A model generated the notes under the pieces. The model searched no databases and was not told the DNA's origin. It saw only the letters and a program-made list of their open reading frames with translations. The translations under genes were made by a program, and so were the position numbers. Source: an archaeon (GTDB lineage: Archaea; Iainarchaeota; Iainarchaeia; Iainarchaeales; CSSED10-239). From it: a DNA stretch of 9,882 nucleotides. Location: contig DAOOON010000021.1 in the NCBI GenBank assembly GCA_035387745.1, positions 1,480 through 11,361 of the forward strand. The letters run 5' to 3'. Numbering within the stretch: position 1 is the stretch's first letter; each line of letters opens with the position of its first letter. Below, piece after piece: positions 3,378 through 9,821 of the stretch.

Positions 3378-3446
3378 TTTTTATTCTTGTTTTAAATATA
3401 TTCTAGTAAATATATATCATACTTTATGTTTATATATGTTATTAAT

Positions 3447-3914
3447 TTATCTTACTTTTATATTTTTACTATCATATAGAACTACAAAGTTAGATATTTT
3501 AACCTGGCTTTTTATTTTCCAAACTTTTGAGTTTAAATTTCTACCAGATATTTTAGGTGAATCAAAACTTGGCAAATCAATTTTAAATTCAAATTCTTTG
3601 TTGTCGCCCACATTAAAGGTTATGTTCTTTTCTAAAGTTATGTCTTTTCTAAATGATGTTAGGTCCCCTTTCTTTCTTTCAAGAACAATGCTCACATCTA
3701 TACTTTCTGCAACGAATTGTTTTTTGGCATTTACAATTAATTTCCCTGAAATAGTTTCTCCATAATTATACTCTGTTTTATATAGTTTAATTTTAGATTT
3801 GCCTTTACCAAAACCACTTCTTGCAAAGTAAATAAAAATAAAAATAAAAACAAATGCAGAAATCACTATAATTAACGCATTCATATTTTTTATAGCCATC
3901 ATTAACATATCCAT
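3447..3914 (-). CDS. Small membrane-anchored protein with one N-terminal TM helix and a beta-rich (arrestin-N/Spo0M-like?) ectodomain
   Basis: The ORF track starts at GTG 3929. On the minus strand that GTG is part of GTGGGGATTAGAGATATG. GGGGAT (3922-3927) is therefore an SD-like site 7 nt ahead of ATG 3912-3914, and it matches the GGGGATTA upstream of mcm. From that ATG the protein is MDMLMMAIKNMNALIIVISAFVFIFIFIYFARSG..., with one clear TM helix. It continues with an alternating beta-strand-like region beginning YKTEYNYGETISGKLIVNAKK. Its K/E/N/I-rich composition matches the other genes. The antisense + ORF at 3436-3765 is shorter and Ser/Leu/Phe-rich. Confidence 0.55.
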   Translation of the reverse strand: MDMLMMAIKNMNALIIVISAFVFIFIFIYFARSGFGKGKSKIKLYKTEYNYGETISGKLIVNAKKQFVAESIDVSIVLERKKGDLTSFRKDITLEKNITFNVGDNKEFEFKIDLPSFDSPKISGRNLNSKVWKIKSQVKISNFVVLYDSKNIKVR

Positions 3915-3921
3915 ATCTCTA

Positions 3922-3927
3922 ATCCCC
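3922..3927 (-). promoter_or_regulatory. Shine-Dalgarno-like site (GGGGAT) for the small membrane protein
   Basis: The minus strand reads GGGGAT, then 7 nt, then ATG (3912-3914). The same GGGGATTA string precedes the mcm start. Confidence 0.4.
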
Positions 3928-4044
3928 ACATTTTAATTAGAAAGATTAATAACAAAATGTTTTAAAAATAATTGTTTTTCTTTTTTCGCACTGGACAAGT
4001 GGTCTAGGTAACTTTTTAATATATTGGTTTCCTAAATATATATT

Positions 4045-4050
4045 AGGTGA
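4045..4050 (+). promoter_or_regulatory. Shine-Dalgarno site (AGGTGA) for the RPA gene
   Basis: AGGTGA matches the GGAGGTGA core complementary to the 3' end of archaeal 16S rRNA. It lies 5 nt upstream of ATG 4056. A/T-rich TATA-like strings (TTTTTAATATAT at about 4011-4022) lie further upstream in the divergent intergenic region. Confidence 0.5.
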
Positions 4051-4055
4051 AAAGT

Positions 4056-5375
4056 ATGCAACTTACAAGTGAACAAATCTATTCTATTATTAAAACCCAA
4101 AGTGGATTAAGCGACGAGGAGCTTAACCAAAAGCTTGAAGAGATAAAAGAGAAATACCAAGGCCTTTTAAGTGATGTTGGCGCAAACATTCTTCTCTCTA
4201 AGCAACTAGGAGTTAATCTAGACTTAAAGCAAAAGACTAGCGCTGTAACTAAAATTTCGGAGATTAATCCAAGCATAGATTCTGTTACTCTTTATGCAAG
4301 AATAAAATCCATTCCTCCAGTCAAGACCTATAAATCAAAAGACGGGGGCCACGGAAAGATTCAAGCAGTTTATTTAGAAGATGAAACTGGAATAATTAAA
4401 TTAAATCTTTGGCAAGACAAAGCAGAGATTATTAAAGAGCAAGGCTTTGAAAAGAACGATTTAGTTTTGATAAAGGATGCAGCAATTAACCAATACAACG
4501 AAAAAGTAGAATTGTCTCTAAGACAAGGCGGCCAAGTAATTAAAGACCCCGAAGGCGTAGATATTAAAAATATTAAAGAAAATGTTATTAAGATTTCAGG
4601 AATTGATGCTGCGCCTGAAGGCACAGTTGACACCTATGCAAGAATTATAGCAATTTATCCAATAAAGACTTTTAAAAAAGAAGAAAAGGAAAGATTTGTT
4701 ATTAATTTTGAGATAAGTGACGGTCTTAAGTCAATAAGGTGTATTGCTTTTGATGCTTGGGCACAAGAGATTTCAAATAATTTTAAAAAAGGCGATCTTG
4801 TAAGGTTATGTGATGTAAAAATCAAAGATGGGTTATATGATTTAGAGTTATATGTTAATTGGAATTCAACATTAACAAAAGATCCAAAAACAAAAATTAA
4901 GATTCCACCATTAAGCGAGCTTGTTTCAAATGATGTTAAAGAGGAAAAGATTAATGCTCTTCAAAACAACAGTAGCTACAAGATTATTGGAACAATCATC
5001 TCTGTTAACAAAGGAAATTTAAGGTCATTTAAATGCCCAGACTGTAAAGAAAAGGTCTTTATAATCAATAACGAGTTTATTTGCGAGGCTTGTAATAAAC
5101 CAGTAGAGCCAGACATGAATATCTTTTCTTCAGTGACGCTAGATGATTCTACAGGCGTAATAAAAGTAAGTCTTTTCAATCAGCTTTTAGAATCAGTTTA
5201 TGATATTAAAAAAGAAGACTTAAAAAAAGACTTAAGCCAGGAAGAAAAAGACGCAATATTCTCTAAAGCCGAAAGTAAGATTCTTGGAAAGAAAGCAATA
5301 GTTACAGGAAAAGCAAAGCAGAACGGTTTTTCCAATCAACTAGAGTTTATGGCAAGCACTTTTGAAATAGAATAA
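4056..5375 (+). CDS. rpa: Replication protein A (single-stranded DNA-binding protein) with three OB folds and a Cys4 zinc ribbon in the last one
   Basis: The N-terminal helical module (LSDEELNQKLEEIKEKYQGLLSDVGANILLSKQLGV) resembles the N-terminus of euryarchaeal RPA1-type proteins. Three repeats show the OB pattern (hydrophobic)-YARI-x-(S/A)I-(P)-x-K-T-(Y/F)-K ... G-x-I-K/R ... W ... GD/NDLV. The repeat anchors are TLYARIKSIPPVKTYK, DTYARIIAIYPIKTFK and YKIIGTIISVNKG. The zinc ribbon CPDC-x12-CEAC (nt 5034-5093) sits inside the third OB fold, as in RPA70 DBD-C and archaeal RPA. The track start GTG 4047 lies inside the SD, so ATG 4056 is preferred. Confidence 0.85.
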   Translation: MQLTSEQIYSIIKTQSGLSDEELNQKLEEIKEKYQGLLSDVGANILLSKQLGVNLDLKQKTSAVTKISEINPSIDSVTLYARIKSIPPVKTYKSKDGGHGKIQAVYLEDETGIIKLNLWQDKAEIIKEQGFEKNDLVLIKDAAINQYNEKVELSLRQGGQVIKDPEGVDIKNIKENVIKISGIDAAPEGTVDTYARIIAIYPIKTFKKEEKERFVINFEISDGLKSIRCIAFDAWAQEISNNFKKGDLVRLCDVKIKDGLYDLELYVNWNSTLTKDPKTKIKIPPLSELVSNDVKEEKINALQNNSSYKIIGTIISVNKGNLRSFKCPDCKEKVFIINNEFICEACNKPVEPDMNIFSSVTLDDSTGVIKVSLFNQLLESVYDIKKEDLKKDLSQEEKDAIFSKAESKILGKKAIVTGKAKQNGFSNQLEFMASTFEIE

Positions 5376-5378
5376 AAC

Positions 5379-6329
5379 ATGAAAACAGAATTTAAATACA
5401 TTCCGCCGTTCTTACCACAAGAGATTTTACAAAAAATAAAGATTGTTGAAAAAAATAACATAAGAACAATTACTTTTCATAATAAAGAACAACTAGAGTT
5501 TGCAAAGAAATCAAAAGATTTCTTAGAGGATTTCTTGGATTTCTACGGGTCTTCTAGAATCGATAAATCCAGAATAAAGTTTGGAGGAAAAGAGTTTAGG
5601 CCAAATGTTTTTTTTGATACAGTACTATTAGAATATTTAAGCAATTGCGCATACACTGAAAAAAAAGAAATTATCAATTCATTAGTTAAGCTTTCTGGCA
5701 AGTATTCAGAAATAGAGCTAGCAAACAAGTTTTCTTTGTTTTTAATAAATCTAAAAAAACTAAGTAAATCTTATGCAAAAGACGGCTTACATAAATCCAT
5801 AATGCCTACATTAAGATCTTTATATAATAATACAATACCAAGAGAACCACACGTAATAAAGTTTAATAAGAAATGTAAAGAAACCTATTCTGGGTTTATT
5901 AGAGCAATAAGGTCTGGCACTATAACTACAGACAAGGTAGTTGTTGATGGTAAAGAAAGAAGAATGTTTTTTAAGTCTCTTGTAGGTTCAACAGAAACAG
6001 ATGTTTTTACTAAACGCGAAAATAAATCCCTAAAGTCAAAAGAAATAGACCTAAATGAAGGCCATCTAGAATTGGCTTTAGATCCTATGACTTTTGATAT
6101 TTATGCAATAAGAACAAAAGACAGAATTCATTTTGGAACGCCAGCAGAAAAACTATTGGGTAATTGGATGCCAAAAGATAAAGAGCAGTTTATGAAAGAG
6201 CTAGTAAAAACAGAACTTGAAAAACATTTAAACAAAGTTTATGCAAAACGAAAAAATGGCAAAGTGATTGTTCCAGGAATACAAAGAATGAAGGAAACAC
6301 ACAGAAGAATGTCTTCTAAAGCCAGATAG
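5379..6329 (+). CDS. Hypothetical basic protein (316 aa), family not recognised, apparently co-transcribed with rpa
   Basis: A long uninterrupted ORF starts 3 nt after the rpa stop codon (TAA aac ATG). Codon and amino-acid usage match the neighbours. It has no Walker, DHH, Zn/Fe-S Cys or primase motifs that I can see. The C-terminal ~35 residues are strongly basic (KHLNKVYAKRKNGKVIVPGIQRMKETHRRMSSKAR). There are no TM segments. Confidence 0.6.
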   Translation: MKTEFKYIPPFLPQEILQKIKIVEKNNIRTITFHNKEQLEFAKKSKDFLEDFLDFYGSSRIDKSRIKFGGKEFRPNVFFDTVLLEYLSNCAYTEKKEIINSLVKLSGKYSEIELANKFSLFLINLKKLSKSYAKDGLHKSIMPTLRSLYNNTIPREPHVIKFNKKCKETYSGFIRAIRSGTITTDKVVVDGKERRMFFKSLVGSTETDVFTKRENKSLKSKEIDLNEGHLELALDPMTFDIYAIRTKDRIHFGTPAEKLLGNWMPKDKEQFMKELVKTELEKHLNKVYAKRKNGKVIVPGIQRMKETHRRMSSKAR

Positions 6330-6330
6330 T

Positions 6331-6376
6331 TTGGTTTTTTCCCCTTCACTTCCTGTATTGTTTTTGTTAGTTTTTA
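6331..6376 (+). terminator. Pyrimidine/oligo-T rich tract, candidate archaeal intrinsic terminator after the rpa-orf316 unit
   Basis: A T6 run lies at 6335-6340, just after the TAG stop at 6327-6329. T5 runs follow at 6361-6365 and 6371-6375. Archaeal RNA polymerase terminates at oligo-T tracts. This is the only sizeable + strand intergenic gap (122 nt) in the cluster. Confidence 0.35.
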
Positions 6377-6439
6377 TGAATAACTATAGGCTTTTCCTAA
6401 GTAGACAAGCATATAACGCATTTGACATAATATAATATA

Positions 6440-6445
6440 GGGGAT
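6440..6445 (+). promoter_or_regulatory. Shine-Dalgarno-like site (GGGGAT) for mcm
   Basis: TAGGGGATTAATATATG places GGGGAT 6 nt upstream of ATG 6452. A/T-rich TATA-like strings (CATATAAC at about 6410-6417, ATAATATAATATA at about 6428-6440) lie upstream. The TSS cannot be placed from sequence alone. Confidence 0.4.
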
Positions 6446-6451
6446 TAATAT

Positions 6452-8578
6452 ATGACAGAGTTTGATTTTGATGAAGTCGATGAGGGCCTAAGTGGTCAAA
6501 CGAATTTAGCTTTAGATGAATATATCTCTGTGTTTACTGATTTTCTAGAAGCAGTCTATAAAAAAGAAATAGAAATTCTAGCTTCAAATTATCCAGATAA
6601 AAAAAGCCTAGATATTGATTATAAAAAACTAGAAGCCTATGATCTTAATATTGCAGAAAGATTAATAGAAAACCCTAATTTAATTATTGAAGCAGCAACT
6701 GCAGCTCTAAGAAGAATTGATGTTGGTATCTTAGAGCAAACAGACCAAAAGTTTGAGCCACATATAAGATTTTTTAATCTCCCAGAGGAATATCGTGTTG
6801 ATATTAGAGACATTGGTTCAAAGCATCTTACAAGTTTGATATCAGCAGAAGGAATGATTAGGCAAATTACAGAAAGACTACAAAAGATGACAGATGCTCA
6901 TTTTATTTGTAGGAAGTGTCAAAATTCTTATACTATTAAACAAACAACTCAAACTCTAACAAAGCCAATCATGTGCGACTGTAAGTCTAGAGAGTTTGAT
7001 TTAGATCTTGAACAAAGTAAATTTATTGATTATCAAAAGCTTGAGATTCAAGAGCCTATAGAAAATCTAAAAGGTAGCGAACAAGCAAACCACGTTGAGG
7101 TTTTTATTTCTGACGATCTTGTTAATTCTTGTTCTGCTGGTGACAAGATAATTGTAACTGGTATAGTTAAACTAAAGCCACAGAAAGACACAAATATGTT
7201 TAACAAGTACATGATAGCAAACCATGTAGAAAAAGTTGATCAAGAATTTGAAGAGCTTGATATAACTCCTGATGAAATTGAAGAAATTAAACAGCTTTCT
7301 AAAAAAGAAGACATCTACGAGTTATTAGCGCAATCAATTGCTCCAAAGATTTATGGTCACGACATTGTTAAGCAAGCAATTACTCTTCAGATGTTTGGTG
7401 GTGTAAAAAAGAAAGTTCAAAAACAGGATTTTAGAGGAAACATTCACATTCTTCTAGTCGGTGATCCATCTACCGGTAAGTCTGAACTTTTAAGAAACGC
7501 AGCAACCATCGCTCCAAAGTCTATTTTTGTTTCTGGAAAAAGTGCATCAGGTGCCGGATTAACAGTCTCTGCAGTTAAAGATGATTTTGGCGAAGGCGGC
7601 TGGACTCTAAAGGCTGGTGCAGTAGTTCTAGCTTCTGGCGGTATAGCAATGATTGATGAATTTGATAAGATGGAAACAGAAGATAGAAGCACTCTTCACG
7701 AAGCCATGGCTCAAGCTACAGTTTCTGTTTCTAAAGCAGGACTTTATGCAAAGTTTAGAGCAGACACTTCTATTCTAGCAGCAGCAAACCCAAAGTTTAA
7801 TAGATTTGATAAGTTTAAGAATCCAATAGAGCAAATTGATCTGCCATTTTCTCTTCTTTCTAGATTTGATTTATATTTTATAATTAGAGACGTTTTAAAC
7901 AGAACTCTTGACCTAGAGCTTGGAAGACACATAATCGATGTTCAAGAGGCTGCTCAAAAGCTTTCAGCACCAGAGGGAGAACTAACAAAAGAAGAAATGG
8001 AAAAGATACAAGATACTGTTCTTCCAAAGATAGATTCAAATATTTTTAAGAAATATGTAGCATATGCTCGTCAGCAGATTAGACCAAAATTAAGTAAAGA
8101 AGCTTCTGAAAAGATTCTAAATTATTATATTGACTTAAGAGATCTTGGCAGAAAATCCGAAAGCTTTGGTGCAACCCCAAGACAGCTTGAAGGTTTAATA
8201 AGATTATCAGAGGCAAGCGCAAAGGTGCGATTAAAACACACAATAGAGCTTGAAGATGCACAAAGAGCAATAAATATCTTCAGAATTTCTCTTGAGCAAA
8301 CTGCAATCGATATGGAAACTGGTAAGATTGATATTGATATTATAACAACCGGCACCTCAACAAGCGAAAGGCAATTTATAAAAAGGGTTCTAAACATAAT
8401 TAAAGATATGACTCTTGATGGAAAAGCAGTAACTATTGCAGAAATATCAGAAACTATGGAAAAACAAAATATAGGAAGAGATAAATTAATGGATGCAATA
8501 TCAAAATTAAAGAAATCAGGAGAGCTTTATGAACCGAAAGTTGGTTTGATAAAGCCAGTAGAGCAACAACCAATGTGA
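6452..8578 (+). CDS. mcm: Minichromosome maintenance (MCM) replicative helicase, full length
   Basis: 708 aa. The N-terminal domain has a zinc motif CRKC-x18-CDC (nt 6908-6982). Other motifs are Walker A LLVGDPSTGKSELL (GDPSTGKS = nt 7460-7483), GGWTLKAGAVVLASGGIAMIDEFDKM (Walker B), sensor-1 ILAAANP, and arginine finger LLSRFDL (R at 7862-7864). The sensor-2 region is ATPRQLEGLIRLSEASAKVRL. The C-terminal winged-helix-like tail is ISETMEKQNIGRDKLMDAISKLKKSGELYEP. No intein-like insertion is present. Confidence 0.97.
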   Translation: MTEFDFDEVDEGLSGQTNLALDEYISVFTDFLEAVYKKEIEILASNYPDKKSLDIDYKKLEAYDLNIAERLIENPNLIIEAATAALRRIDVGILEQTDQKFEPHIRFFNLPEEYRVDIRDIGSKHLTSLISAEGMIRQITERLQKMTDAHFICRKCQNSYTIKQTTQTLTKPIMCDCKSREFDLDLEQSKFIDYQKLEIQEPIENLKGSEQANHVEVFISDDLVNSCSAGDKIIVTGIVKLKPQKDTNMFNKYMIANHVEKVDQEFEELDITPDEIEEIKQLSKKEDIYELLAQSIAPKIYGHDIVKQAITLQMFGGVKKKVQKQDFRGNIHILLVGDPSTGKSELLRNAATIAPKSIFVSGKSASGAGLTVSAVKDDFGEGGWTLKAGAVVLASGGIAMIDEFDKMETEDRSTLHEAMAQATVSVSKAGLYAKFRADTSILAAANPKFNRFDKFKNPIEQIDLPFSLLSRFDLYFIIRDVLNRTLDLELGRHIIDVQEAAQKLSAPEGELTKEEMEKIQDTVLPKIDSNIFKKYVAYARQQIRPKLSKEASEKILNYYIDLRDLGRKSESFGATPRQLEGLIRLSEASAKVRLKHTIELEDAQRAINIFRISLEQTAIDMETGKIDIDIITTGTSTSERQFIKRVLNIIKDMTLDGKAVTIAEISETMEKQNIGRDKLMDAISKLKKSGELYEPKVGLIKPVEQQPM

Positions 8579-8585
8579 TTAAAAA

Positions 8586-9434
8586 ATGTATAGTGCTTTA
8601 AAGGATAGAAAGTTTCTTCTTTCGTTTTTGTTTTTGTTTTTATTAGTTCAAATAATTGCAATAATTGTAACAATCAATTATCTGCCGCAGAATCTACAAT
8701 TAACTCTTGTTAATAAAGACCCAAATAGTGTTTGGAATGCTTTATTTATTGTTGGCTATATCATTTTCTTTACCGCGATAATCATAGTTTTAAGAAAAAT
8801 TTTTAAAAAACAAAATTATCTTGTAGTAATAGAGGCGCTAGCATTGTTTGGTGGTGTTTCTTTAATTTTTTCTATATTTTTACATACAATTCTAGCATAT
8901 ATTGCAACAATTTGTTTATTATTAATAAAATATTCTTTTACAAAAGAAACCATTTACACAAAATGGTATAACAATATTCTTTTAGCTATGGCAATAGCTG
9001 GCGCTGGCGCAATCATTGGTATAAGCCTTGGCATTATTCCAGTTATTGTTTTGTTAATACTTCTTGCAGTCTATGATATTATCTCTGTGTTTTTTACAAA
9101 GCACATGATTACTCTTGCAGACATGATTATTAAGAAAAAGATATCCTTATTATTTATTCTTCCAACAAAGAAAAGAGAATATAAGCTTGGCGGTGGAGAT
9201 CTTGTTATTCCGGCACTAGTCTCTTCTAGTCTTTTTGCCTTATTAATAAAGAAGTATTCAATATTACAAATATTAATTCCCATTTCTGCAATTTGGATTT
9301 CTTCAATTGCTGGATTGTTTTTAACCTTCTATATTTTAGACCGGTATAAAACAAAAGTAAAAGCTCTTCCGGCCCTTCCAATACAGGTTGCGCTAATGCT
9401 GGTTGTAATAATCATTACATTAATTAGTTCTTAG
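8586..9434 (+). CDS. Presenilin / signal-peptide-peptidase family GxGD intramembrane aspartyl protease (archaeal PSH-like, peptidase A22)
   Basis: 282 aa, polytopic, with about 8-9 hydrophobic segments. All three family hallmarks appear in the correct order. The YD motif in a TM helix is LLAVYDIISVFF (Asp codon 9075-9077). The GxGD motif is KLGGGDLVIPA (Asp codon 9198-9200). The PAL motif is KALPALPIQ (9369-9377) near the C-terminus. It starts 7 nt after the mcm stop codon, with a TGTGAT SD-like string overlapping that stop. Confidence 0.8.
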   Translation: MYSALKDRKFLLSFLFLFLLVQIIAIIVTINYLPQNLQLTLVNKDPNSVWNALFIVGYIIFFTAIIIVLRKIFKKQNYLVVIEALALFGGVSLIFSIFLHTILAYIATICLLLIKYSFTKETIYTKWYNNILLAMAIAGAGAIIGISLGIIPVIVLLILLAVYDIISVFFTKHMITLADMIIKKKISLLFILPTKKREYKLGGGDLVIPALVSSSLFALLIKKYSILQILIPISAIWISSIAGLFLTFYILDRYKTKVKALPALPIQVALMLVVIIITLISS

Positions 9435-9821
9435 AAACTCACAAGTAGTGCTTACCTCTACAAATCTTTTGTTTATTCTTGAATGATAGGATTCGCACTG
9501 ATTTTCTTTAAGATTATCCACATAATCGTTTCTTGGAGTATTAACAGAATCACAAACCCACCCTGGAGCAATAGATTCAGAAAGGCAAGGGCCAGTAGAA
9601 GACAATTCGGTTCTTATAAGTTTTTCATTACAAAGAGCAATACAATCATCAATTGCTTGTGTCTTATATTTGTCTGTTTTATTTAAGCTAGAAACAAAAC
9701 TAAGTATTGCAAATCCAATAATAAGGCAAATAACAATTACATAAACATAGACCGTAATTTTTCCTGGCTTAAACAAATCCAAACTTAGATGCTTTTCTAA
9801 TTTTTTTCTCTTTTTAGCCAT
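9420..9821 (-). CDS. Small membrane-anchored or secreted Cys-rich protein, unknown family
   Basis: 133 aa. It has a basic N-terminus (MAKKRKKLEKH), one TM/signal-anchor helix (ITVYVYVIVICLIIGFAILSFV) and an ~85-aa ectodomain with 6 Cys (CIALC...C...C...C...C). A GTGAT SD-like motif lies 9 nt upstream of the ATG on the minus strand. The antisense + ORF at 9483-9686 is shorter and has odd composition. Confidence 0.5.
   Translation of the reverse strand: MAKKRKKLEKHLSLDLFKPGKITVYVYVIVICLIIGFAILSFVSSLNKTDKYKTQAIDDCIALCNEKLIRTELSSTGPCLSESIAPGWVCDSVNTPRNDYVDNLKENQCESYHSRINKRFVEVSTTCEFLRTN

Follow-up and report, generated by a model that had tools for sequence, protein, structure and literature searches.

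Archaeal DNA replication is regarded as well inventoried and eukaryote-like. In Halobacteria and Methanosarcinales, a non-RPA gene encoding an RPA-associated protein (RAP or Rpap, COG3390) is located directly beside the gene for replication protein A (rpa); the RAPs are co-transcribed with the adjacent rpa and, in Haloferax, interact with its product (PMC3914693). In Thermococcales and Methanococcales, the subunits encoded by adjacent genes (RPA41/RPA14/RPA32) assemble with the large RPA subunit (PMC3914693). The archaeal GINS proteins (GINS51/GINS23) belong to a notoriously poorly conserved family (PMC12680538). In this work we analyzed a stretch of 9,882 nucleotides (nt) from an archaeon of the Iainarchaeales (contig DAOOON010000021.1; the whole stretch is hereafter called the window), in which an open reading frame (ORF) for a protein of 316 amino acids (aa), designated X, lies between rpa and the gene for the replicative helicase (mcm). 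The original prediction, made from the letters of the window, had proposed X as a candidate new replication factor.

The reading that we rank first, though only tentatively, is that X would be a nucleic-acid-binding accessory co-expressed with RPA, analogous to the RAPs of euryarchaea without being their homologue. Precedents exist for such an arrangement, in which rpa is co-expressed with a lineage-specific gene. Such a protein would add a lineage-specific component to the archaeal replication inventory and would open a way into how genome-reduced DPANN archaea, about half of whose genes are 'hypothetical', run or protect their replisome.

Organization of the rpa-X-mcm Locus

X (5379..6329, plus strand) starts with ATG and belongs, within a new family, to the group of orthologues linked to rpa. 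It is preceded by rpa (4056..5375, plus strand; 439 aa), which probably forms an operon with X and is the first of its two genes. The rpa product contains the Pfam tRNA_anti-codon OB folds and the Rep_fac-A_C domain and matches the NCBIfam replication factor A models. On the other side lies mcm (6452..8578, plus strand), encoding the replicative helicase of 708 aa with the MCM_N, MCM_OB, MCM P-loop, MCM_lid and MCM_WH_arc domains (NF040949). The neighbourhood on which the original prediction drew is conserved in related genomes: the order rpa-X-mcm was revealed in 13 out of 13 orthologous loci examined, including those with X alleles 37-46% identical to each other, and the next gene is usually that of a presenilin-type peptidase. 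The orthologous loci named are L001-L007, L023, L028, L044, L046 and L047; the L047 contig stops about 120 nt after the start of the gene that follows X.

At the rpa-X junction (5373..5381, plus strand), the rpa stop codon TAA (5373-5375) is separated from the ATG of X (5379) by the 3-nt spacer AAC, and no Shine-Dalgarno (SD) motif is present. This arrangement, already noticed in the window, is not peculiar to it: no GGTG/GGAG-like motif precedes X either here or in the nine relatives checked, where the gaps are 1-9 nt. SD-like motifs precede rpa (AGGTGA), mcm (AGGGGA) and many other genes of the region. Since X has no ribosome-binding site and its start codon follows the rpa stop codon at a distance of 1-9 nt, the ribosomes that translate it are probably those that have just completed RPA. 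The junction is probably a termination-reinitiation site and the rpa-X transcript would be bicistronic, as far as can be judged from the sequence; X and rpa may thus form a two-gene unit in this clade.

The oligo-T tract that had been described between X and mcm is a T-rich region (6330..6378, plus strand) with runs of five to six T at three positions (6335-6340, 6361-6365 and 6371-6375), and it is probably an archaeal oligo-T terminator closing the rpa-X unit. The X-mcm spacer has a length of 122 nt and is 97-100% identical between L001 and L007. Directly 5' of mcm, it contains an A/T-rich TATA-like tract (ATAATATAATATA), a putative mcm promoter, and the SD-like motif AGGGGA (6427..6451, plus strand). 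The T-runs, the length of the spacer and the presence of an A/T-rich tract and an SD-like motif belonging to mcm itself suggest that X and mcm are transcribed separately.

As to the start of rpa, the ORF listing gives a GTG at 4047, and the ATG at 4056, with AGGTGA at 4045-4050, fits the 439-aa relatives. The ATG is most likely the true start.

The X Family and Its Predicted Fold

X is a real protein-coding gene, since the probability that 316 codons contain no stop is about 4e-12 at the local base composition, the ratio of nonsynonymous to synonymous substitution rates (dN/dS) among its homologues is 0.18-0.49, and AlphaFold2 (AF2) gives a confident model. Its isoelectric point (pI) is 9.78 vs 5.8 for RPA and 5.3 for MCM, and its last 35 residues carry a net charge of +11. 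There is no transmembrane segment (maximum Kyte-Doolittle score over 19 residues, 0.52), both the Walker A motif and the PIP box are absent, and the only cysteines are C90 and C166. Thus, the earlier description of X as a protein with a basic tail but without a membrane segment, an NTPase motif or a cysteine cluster was correct.

A word-indexed search of 5.8 billion proteins revealed nine homologues of X with 43-99% identity, and a full HMMER scan with the homologue profile, covering 1.84 billion representatives, gave 30 clusters at E ≤ 1e-3. Eleven true family loci were recovered with a hand-made degenerate DNA pattern. The family was defined on the alignments A1, A2 (34 sequences) and A4 (core only); the family hidden Markov model scores 155-250 bits for 27 loci. 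The members are 164-366 aa long and lysine-rich, with a pI of 9.3-10.1 in all 34 and exactly one cysteine in most of them. Residues C166, G172, F173, K199 and L232 are invariant, and G191, G203, G228, D235, P236 and Y242 are nearly so. The family motif can be written as RIKxG...CxxTYxGFxRA(L/I)...KVxIDGKxxRVFxK...G...LxIDPxT..xY, followed by a C-terminal YAK...PGIxRMK helix, and the common plan combines a helical domain and an alpha/beta core with a basic helix at the C-terminus. X has all the defining features, namely the core motif, the invariant residues, the basic pI and the C-terminal helix. In NCBI, the members are annotated as 'hypothetical protein' from 'archaeon' or 'Candidatus Diapherotrites archaeon' metagenome-assembled genomes. 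The GC content of the family loci is 24-36%, and the family was found only in AT-rich small-genome archaea of the DPANN type.

Some forms of X have a length of 361 aa (L005 1560-2645, that is P0007, and several Logan cluster members). They read TGA as Trp and extend into the X-mcm spacer with the tail ...SKPRWFYVSPSLPV...; under table 11, the L005 ORF, taken from the preceding stop codon, terminates at 2537, which corresponds to the 326-aa form annotated by NCBI and present in L007. It looks as though the 361-aa forms were produced by gene calling under an alternative genetic code.

The first AF2 model of X, obtained with 10 close homologues, was mediocre (predicted local distance difference test, pLDDT, 77; predicted template modelling score, pTM, 0.56), while the second one, based on the 34-sequence family alignment, reached a pTM of 0.89 and a pLDDT of 91.4 (pLDDT 89-91 in all five models). 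Residues 1-35 (5379..5483, plus strand, as for all parts of X) are predicted to form a three-stranded beta module, with the strands in residues 2-33. This is the most variable part of X (dN 0.21-0.42 between alleles, entropy 1.62), and in the 34-sequence alignment it is missing in many distant members. It is followed by a predicted helical domain (residues 36-150; 5484..5828; pLDDT 90-98), which holds the clade-conserved stretch EKKEI...ELANKFSLFLINLKKLSKS. The family-defining core (residues 155-258; 5841..6152; C166 codon at 5874-5876) has the predicted topology beta-alpha-beta-beta, variable loop, beta-beta, and the conserved basic residues R175, K186, R195 and K199 sit on its helix and hairpin. 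The remaining part (residues 266-316; 6174..6326) comprises a long helix (266-288), a beta hairpin, a basic C-terminal helix (300-313) and the tail. The tail motif YAKRK..GK..PGIQRMKETHRRMSSKAR is still recognisable in distant members. Examples of residues conserved in the clade are ELANKFSLFLINLKKLSK and those of the C-terminal helix.

A single-sequence scan of Pfam, NCBIfam, PHROGs and PADLOC gave no significant match for X. Neither did scans of the family libraries with the 34 members one by one and with the profile consensus sequences, and for the latter no signal was found in Pfam or NCBIfam even at E ≤ 10. Searches of PDB sequences by phmmer and hmmsearch with X, A1, A2 and the core-only A4 revealed no match at E < 0.01; the noise included a phage neck protein (E 0.012) and a botulinum toxin (E 0.17). 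At the level of structure, Foldseek found no match for the pLDDT-91 model among 350,542 PDB chains (best E 0.19, TM score < 0.2), and for the pLDDT-77 model nothing in PDB and nothing in BFVD (best E in BFVD 0.054). No homologues of the family were detected by tblastn in GenBank phages and PLSDB plasmids, and a motif scan of IMG/VR gave five chance matches and no family member. Literature searches revealed nothing specific on the accessions or on an rpa-mcm-linked DPANN protein.

Thus, the X family and its predicted fold are new by every test made. X had been called unrecognisable from its letters, and it stayed so in the family libraries, with the 34-sequence profile and in the comparison of the pLDDT-91 model with PDB; the profile and Foldseek searches found neither the OB, winged-helix or GINS domains that had been considered nor a housekeeping family unrelated to DNA metabolism. 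A confident predicted fold of 316 residues without a PDB match is a good structural-genomics target.

X as a Possible Accessory of RPA

The comparison with RAPs reveals both common and distinct features. Like a RAP gene, X is adjacent to and co-oriented with rpa in the orthologous loci, and it would be a lineage-specific accessory made together with RPA. Homology to COG3390 or to OB folds was not detected by Pfam, NCBIfam or Foldseek; moreover, X is larger than RAPs, it evolves much faster than its RPA, and other members of its family are not linked to rpa. X also differs from the RPA14 and RPA32 subunits, as it has no OB fold or winged helix and no similarity to either of them. The possibility that X is a duplicate of RPA was rejected on the basis of an hhalign comparison of A2 with the alignment of the neighbouring RPA (A5), which gave a probability of 0.1%.

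The basic charge of X and the conserved basic residues on its core helix and hairpin suggest that it binds nucleic acids, and it may act with RPA on single-stranded DNA (ssDNA). A role as an accessory of RPA would be more likely than that of an MCM loader. DNA-related neighbours of other subfamilies, including a Xer-type recombinase, SMC, Hjc and a Toprim protein, also count in favour of this reading, and the conserved absence of an SD motif at the rpa-X junction strengthens the case for coupling beyond the length of the gap.

In a neighbour-joining tree, the other subfamilies correspond to distinct gene contexts. The members of one of them are located directly 3' of Kae1; the next genes are a 111-aa ORF and PTH2, and Hjc and a Toprim protein are encoded close by. 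Other subfamilies are found directly 3' of Rio1-KH(Dim2/Pno1), directly 3' of a Xer-type tyrosine recombinase, as stand-alone genes convergent with a Drg-like GTPase, and as stand-alone genes near SMC (two genes away) and SerRS. The Kae1-linked HNW05707.1 and the rpa-linked HNW05900.1 (beside the MCM protein HNW05899.1) belong to one assembly and are therefore paralogues within one genome.

It should be added that the Kae1 genes end with ...GATTGGTGA (L008 9983-10003; L040 ~5868-5907), where the Trp and stop codons form a GGTGA SD-like motif. It lies 4-10 nt before the ATG of the paralogue, whereas the rpa-linked X has no such motif.

A number of observations speak against X being an accessory of RPA. 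First, gaps of 4-15 nt are usual between same-strand genes in these compact genomes, so that the 3-nt gap between rpa and X is by itself a weak sign of coupling; of the original argument for translational coupling, it is the conserved SD-less junction that stands. Second, X is only 43-74% identical where RPA is 84-92% and MCM 92-95% identical. In the comparison of L001 with L007/L005, the X proteins share only about 70% identity, with RPA 99% identical and MCM virtually identical; a stoichiometric partner of RPA would be expected to track it more closely. Such a rate of evolution and the swaps of alleles described below are unusual for a core replisome subunit. Third, in a contig from activated sludge (L023 7475-8431, minus strand) X has an in-frame stop (GVA*NPH vs GVAENPH in P0010), which is located in a variable loop and splits X into ORFs of 207 and 110 aa; this may be a pseudogene, a population or strain variant or a sequencing error. 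Fourth, none of the known DNA-binding modules, such as an OB fold or a winged helix, was detected in X. Finally, the link to RPA and replication, although plausible, comes from gene order in a single clade. The Kae1-linked paralogue is found among tRNA and translation genes, and the Kae1, Rio1-KH(Dim2) and Drg-like contexts point equally well to RNA.

Since the other subfamilies sit elsewhere, gene order supports a role in replication for the rpa-linked subfamily only. For this subfamily, whose members always occur in the order rpa-X-mcm, the label of candidate replication factor is plausible as a reading of gene context in one clade; it does not extend to the wider family, which is not linked to replication, and the fast evolution of X tells against it.

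A second explanation, which we consider possible but doubtful, is that X belongs to a family of general nucleic-acid-binding proteins (RNA or DNA chaperones, or proteins associated with chromatin or ribonucleoproteins), whose paralogues came by chance to lie at the 3' ends of housekeeping operons. The rpa/mcm neighbourhood would then be a historical accident of a compact genome, with little functional meaning. Contexts that differ between subfamilies and yet are stable in each clade (rpa-mcm, Kae1-PTH2, Rio1-KH(Dim2), Xer-type, Drg-like and SMC/SerRS) are consistent with this explanation, as are the presence of at least two paralogues in one genome, the strongly basic character of all members and the weak constraint on the family outside a small core. 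Furthermore, genes for replication and for translation are often found together in the housekeeping operons of archaea. On the other hand, the conserved fold of 240-360 aa (pLDDT 91) with its invariant Cys/Lys core exceeds typical nucleoid proteins in size and specificity, and the SD-less coupling to rpa is kept throughout the rpa clade. A better description of the whole family is that of a set of basic proteins attached to various housekeeping operons related to nucleic acids.

Divergence of X and Replacement of Its Alleles

X is the most divergent gene of the neighbourhood, exceeding the membrane protease and a conserved 133-aa ORF described below. The identities of RPA, X and MCM to their counterparts in the window are 89, 70 and 94% in L001; 88, 43 and 92% in L002; 84, 57 and 92% in L004; 89, 65 and 94% in L005; and 75, 44 and 79% in L044. 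The dN of X is 2-10 times that of its neighbours, and its dN/dS is 0.18-0.49 vs 0.04-0.12. The Kae1-linked paralogue evolves equally fast (47% identity vs 86-93% for CysRS, Kae1 and PTH2).

Comparison of L001 with L007/L005 revealed that the divergence is sharply delimited. For X, dN is 0.19 and dS is 0.63, while dS in the rpa and mcm flanks is 0.03-0.09. At the DNA level, both flanks and the X-mcm spacer are 97-100% identical, but the sequence within X is only 67-85% identical; the divergent tract extends from the rpa stop to about 70 nt before the X stop, where it ends within the conserved tail. An elevated dS cannot arise from relaxed or positive selection, and therefore the X allele was replaced by recombination. 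Positive selection as the source of divergence was rejected, as none of the 40-codon windows of X has dN/dS > 1. Thus, purifying selection acts on X, but much more weakly than on its neighbours, and whole alleles are exchanged between lineages via recombination in the conserved flanks.

The X tree is also incongruent with its flanks. The X of L002 is nearest to that of L044 (54% identity), whereas its RPA and MCM are nearest to those of the window and L046 and farthest from those of L044.

Within the 21 kb shared by L001 and L007 (96-100% identity), only two other differences were found, a segment of a PKD-domain protein and an AAA_14/DUF4143 gene. The former is a 1.2-kb segment, 80-86% identical to L007, in a surface protein of 1056 aa with PKD/Big domains (L001 950-2150). 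The latter encodes an ATPase of 448 aa (L001 3905-5250) and is absent from the otherwise collinear L007.

A divergence island made by recombination in near-identical flanks resembles the surface-protein loci of DPANN archaea and other small-genome symbionts, and the PKD-domain protein behaves in this way. X differs from the products of such loci in that it has no signal peptide or transmembrane segment, is basic and cytoplasmic-looking, and is encoded between core replication genes. Divergence and recombination like those of surface antigens between two of the most conserved genes of a genome are an unusual population-genetic pattern.

This pattern raises the question of whether X is involved in a conflict, as a defence or counter-defence protein, as a target that viruses hijack at the fork, or as a symbiont-host factor, with its diversity under diversifying or frequency-dependent selection. 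We regard this as unlikely. The presence of X among the only three differences between near-identical strains, together with a surface-protein segment and a mobile AAA_14/DUF4143 gene, would be in agreement with a conflict, and so would the high dS with sharp tract ends, the incongruent tree, the equally fast paralogue, the lineage-restricted family and the variable accessory slot 5' of rpa. However, PADLOC-DB gave no match for X and for five of the six paralogues tested; the sixth, P0011, has isolated weak matches to Csm2 (E 0.002, 16 bits) and DpdH (E 0.011). There is also no homologue in IMG/VR, GenBank phages and plasmids, no window of X with an excess of nonsynonymous changes, and only one clear replacement event and one incongruence are documented. 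In addition, X is always found at a fixed place beside core genes and not in a defence island. Mobility of the kind known for homing endonucleases was likewise rejected, as X is never missing from its locus and its position is fixed in each subfamily.

A broader version, to which we give a rather small probability, is that the X family comprises DPANN-restricted specificity factors associated with the fork or with ssDNA, whose diversity is maintained by viruses, plasmids or host-symbiont targeting and whose paralogues serve as adaptors elsewhere. X would then be a non-homologous partner of RPA or, possibly, an adaptor for helicase recruitment. If true, X would be the first hypervariable component built into an archaeal replication operon, and its paralogues would be equivalent adaptors for KEOPS/tRNA, Rio1-Dim2/pre-rRNA and Xer/dif.

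MCM-Associated Factors and Known Families

It is very unlikely that X is a factor directed to MCM, that is, a helicase loader or a CMG-type accessory similar in function to Cdt1/WhiP or GINS. X is indeed located directly upstream of mcm in all orthologous loci, and the gins23 gene, as Marinsek et al. are said to have found in 2006, lies upstream of mcm in Sulfolobus. X also resembles GINS in having helical and beta-rich domains and in its poor conservation. However, the T-runs and the 122-nt spacer, with mcm's own A/T-rich tract and SD-like motif, lie between the two genes, and the paralogues of X are not near mcm. GINS proteins have a helical A domain of the Sld5 type (PF05916) and a small B domain in a total of about 150-200 aa. 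No match to PF05916 was revealed, either for the 34 members at E ≤ 0.1 or for the consensus sequences at E ≤ 10, and X is about twice the size of archaeal GINS and would be tied transcriptionally to rpa, not to mcm. Winged-helix domains, which occur in tandem in Cdt1/WhiP, were not found in the Pfam scans of the 34 members or by Foldseek, and no GINS, CMG or Cdt1 chain is present among the 50 Foldseek matches listed. Loaders of the AAA+ type (Orc1/Cdc6, RFC-like) have a Walker A/B P-loop; X has no Walker A motif and no AAA match in Pfam. The loader or GINS-like reading is thus disfavoured by the transcription-unit boundary and by the negative profile and structure tests.

Least probable of all is that X is a very divergent member of a known family (PCNA-like clamp, COG3390, RPA32/14 or TBP-like) missed by the tools: a local match of X residues 167-214 to residues 133-179 of Sulfolobus PCNA3 recurs at a non-significant E of 0.25-0.36, and the core order beta-alpha-beta(4)-alpha, as read by eye from the AF2 model, may resemble a TBP-like or half-clamp unit, but the pLDDT-91 model has no PCNA, TBP or OB match in a PDB library rich in each of them, and the hhalign comparison with RPA and the Pfam/NCBIfam scans described above were negative. 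The resemblance to the sliding clamp covers one beta-alpha-beta-beta unit; the two clamp domains (PF00705 and PF02747, about 245 aa) were not found by Pfam or Foldseek, and X differs from PCNA in length and domain plan. None of the tests linked X to GINS, Cdt1/WhiP, PCNA, RPA32/14 or COG3390.

Two further candidates were rejected. Bud32 usually follows Kae1, and this place is occupied by the Kae1-linked paralogue; no kinase motifs and no structural match to kinases were found that would make it a Bud32/RIO kinase. The PD-(D/E)xK, GIY-YIG, HUH and ligase KxDG motifs were rejected by inspection of the alignment, as the order or conservation of the residues is unfit.

Other Features of the Region

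An Rfam scan and a repeat scan of the window revealed nothing relevant. The region between the gene for a T2SSE-type ATPase and rpa (3378-4046) is a slot with differing accessory genes among relatives. In the window it contains a gene for a Spo0M-like membrane protein of 160 aa (3447-3929, minus strand), in L001 a VapB/PemK toxin-antitoxin pair (7880-8406), and in L002 (1124-2200) and L047 (2571-3569) a DUF1016/YhcG nuclease-like gene. Thus, the slot right beside the rpa-X operon is a variable insertion site.

A VapBC-type toxin-antitoxin pair is also found in the window at 429-1068, where an 81-aa ORF overlaps the start of the gene for a PIN-domain protein of 138 aa (652-1068). The small partner has no Pfam match.

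At the other end of the window, a conserved 133-aa ORF (9420-9821, minus strand) is convergent with the gene for the presenilin-type peptidase, and their 3' ends overlap by 15 nt. Its product has no family match and contains one N-terminal hydrophobic segment and several cysteines. Counterparts are present in L001, L004 and L046, and they are 75-81% identical among relatives vs 92-95% for MCM.

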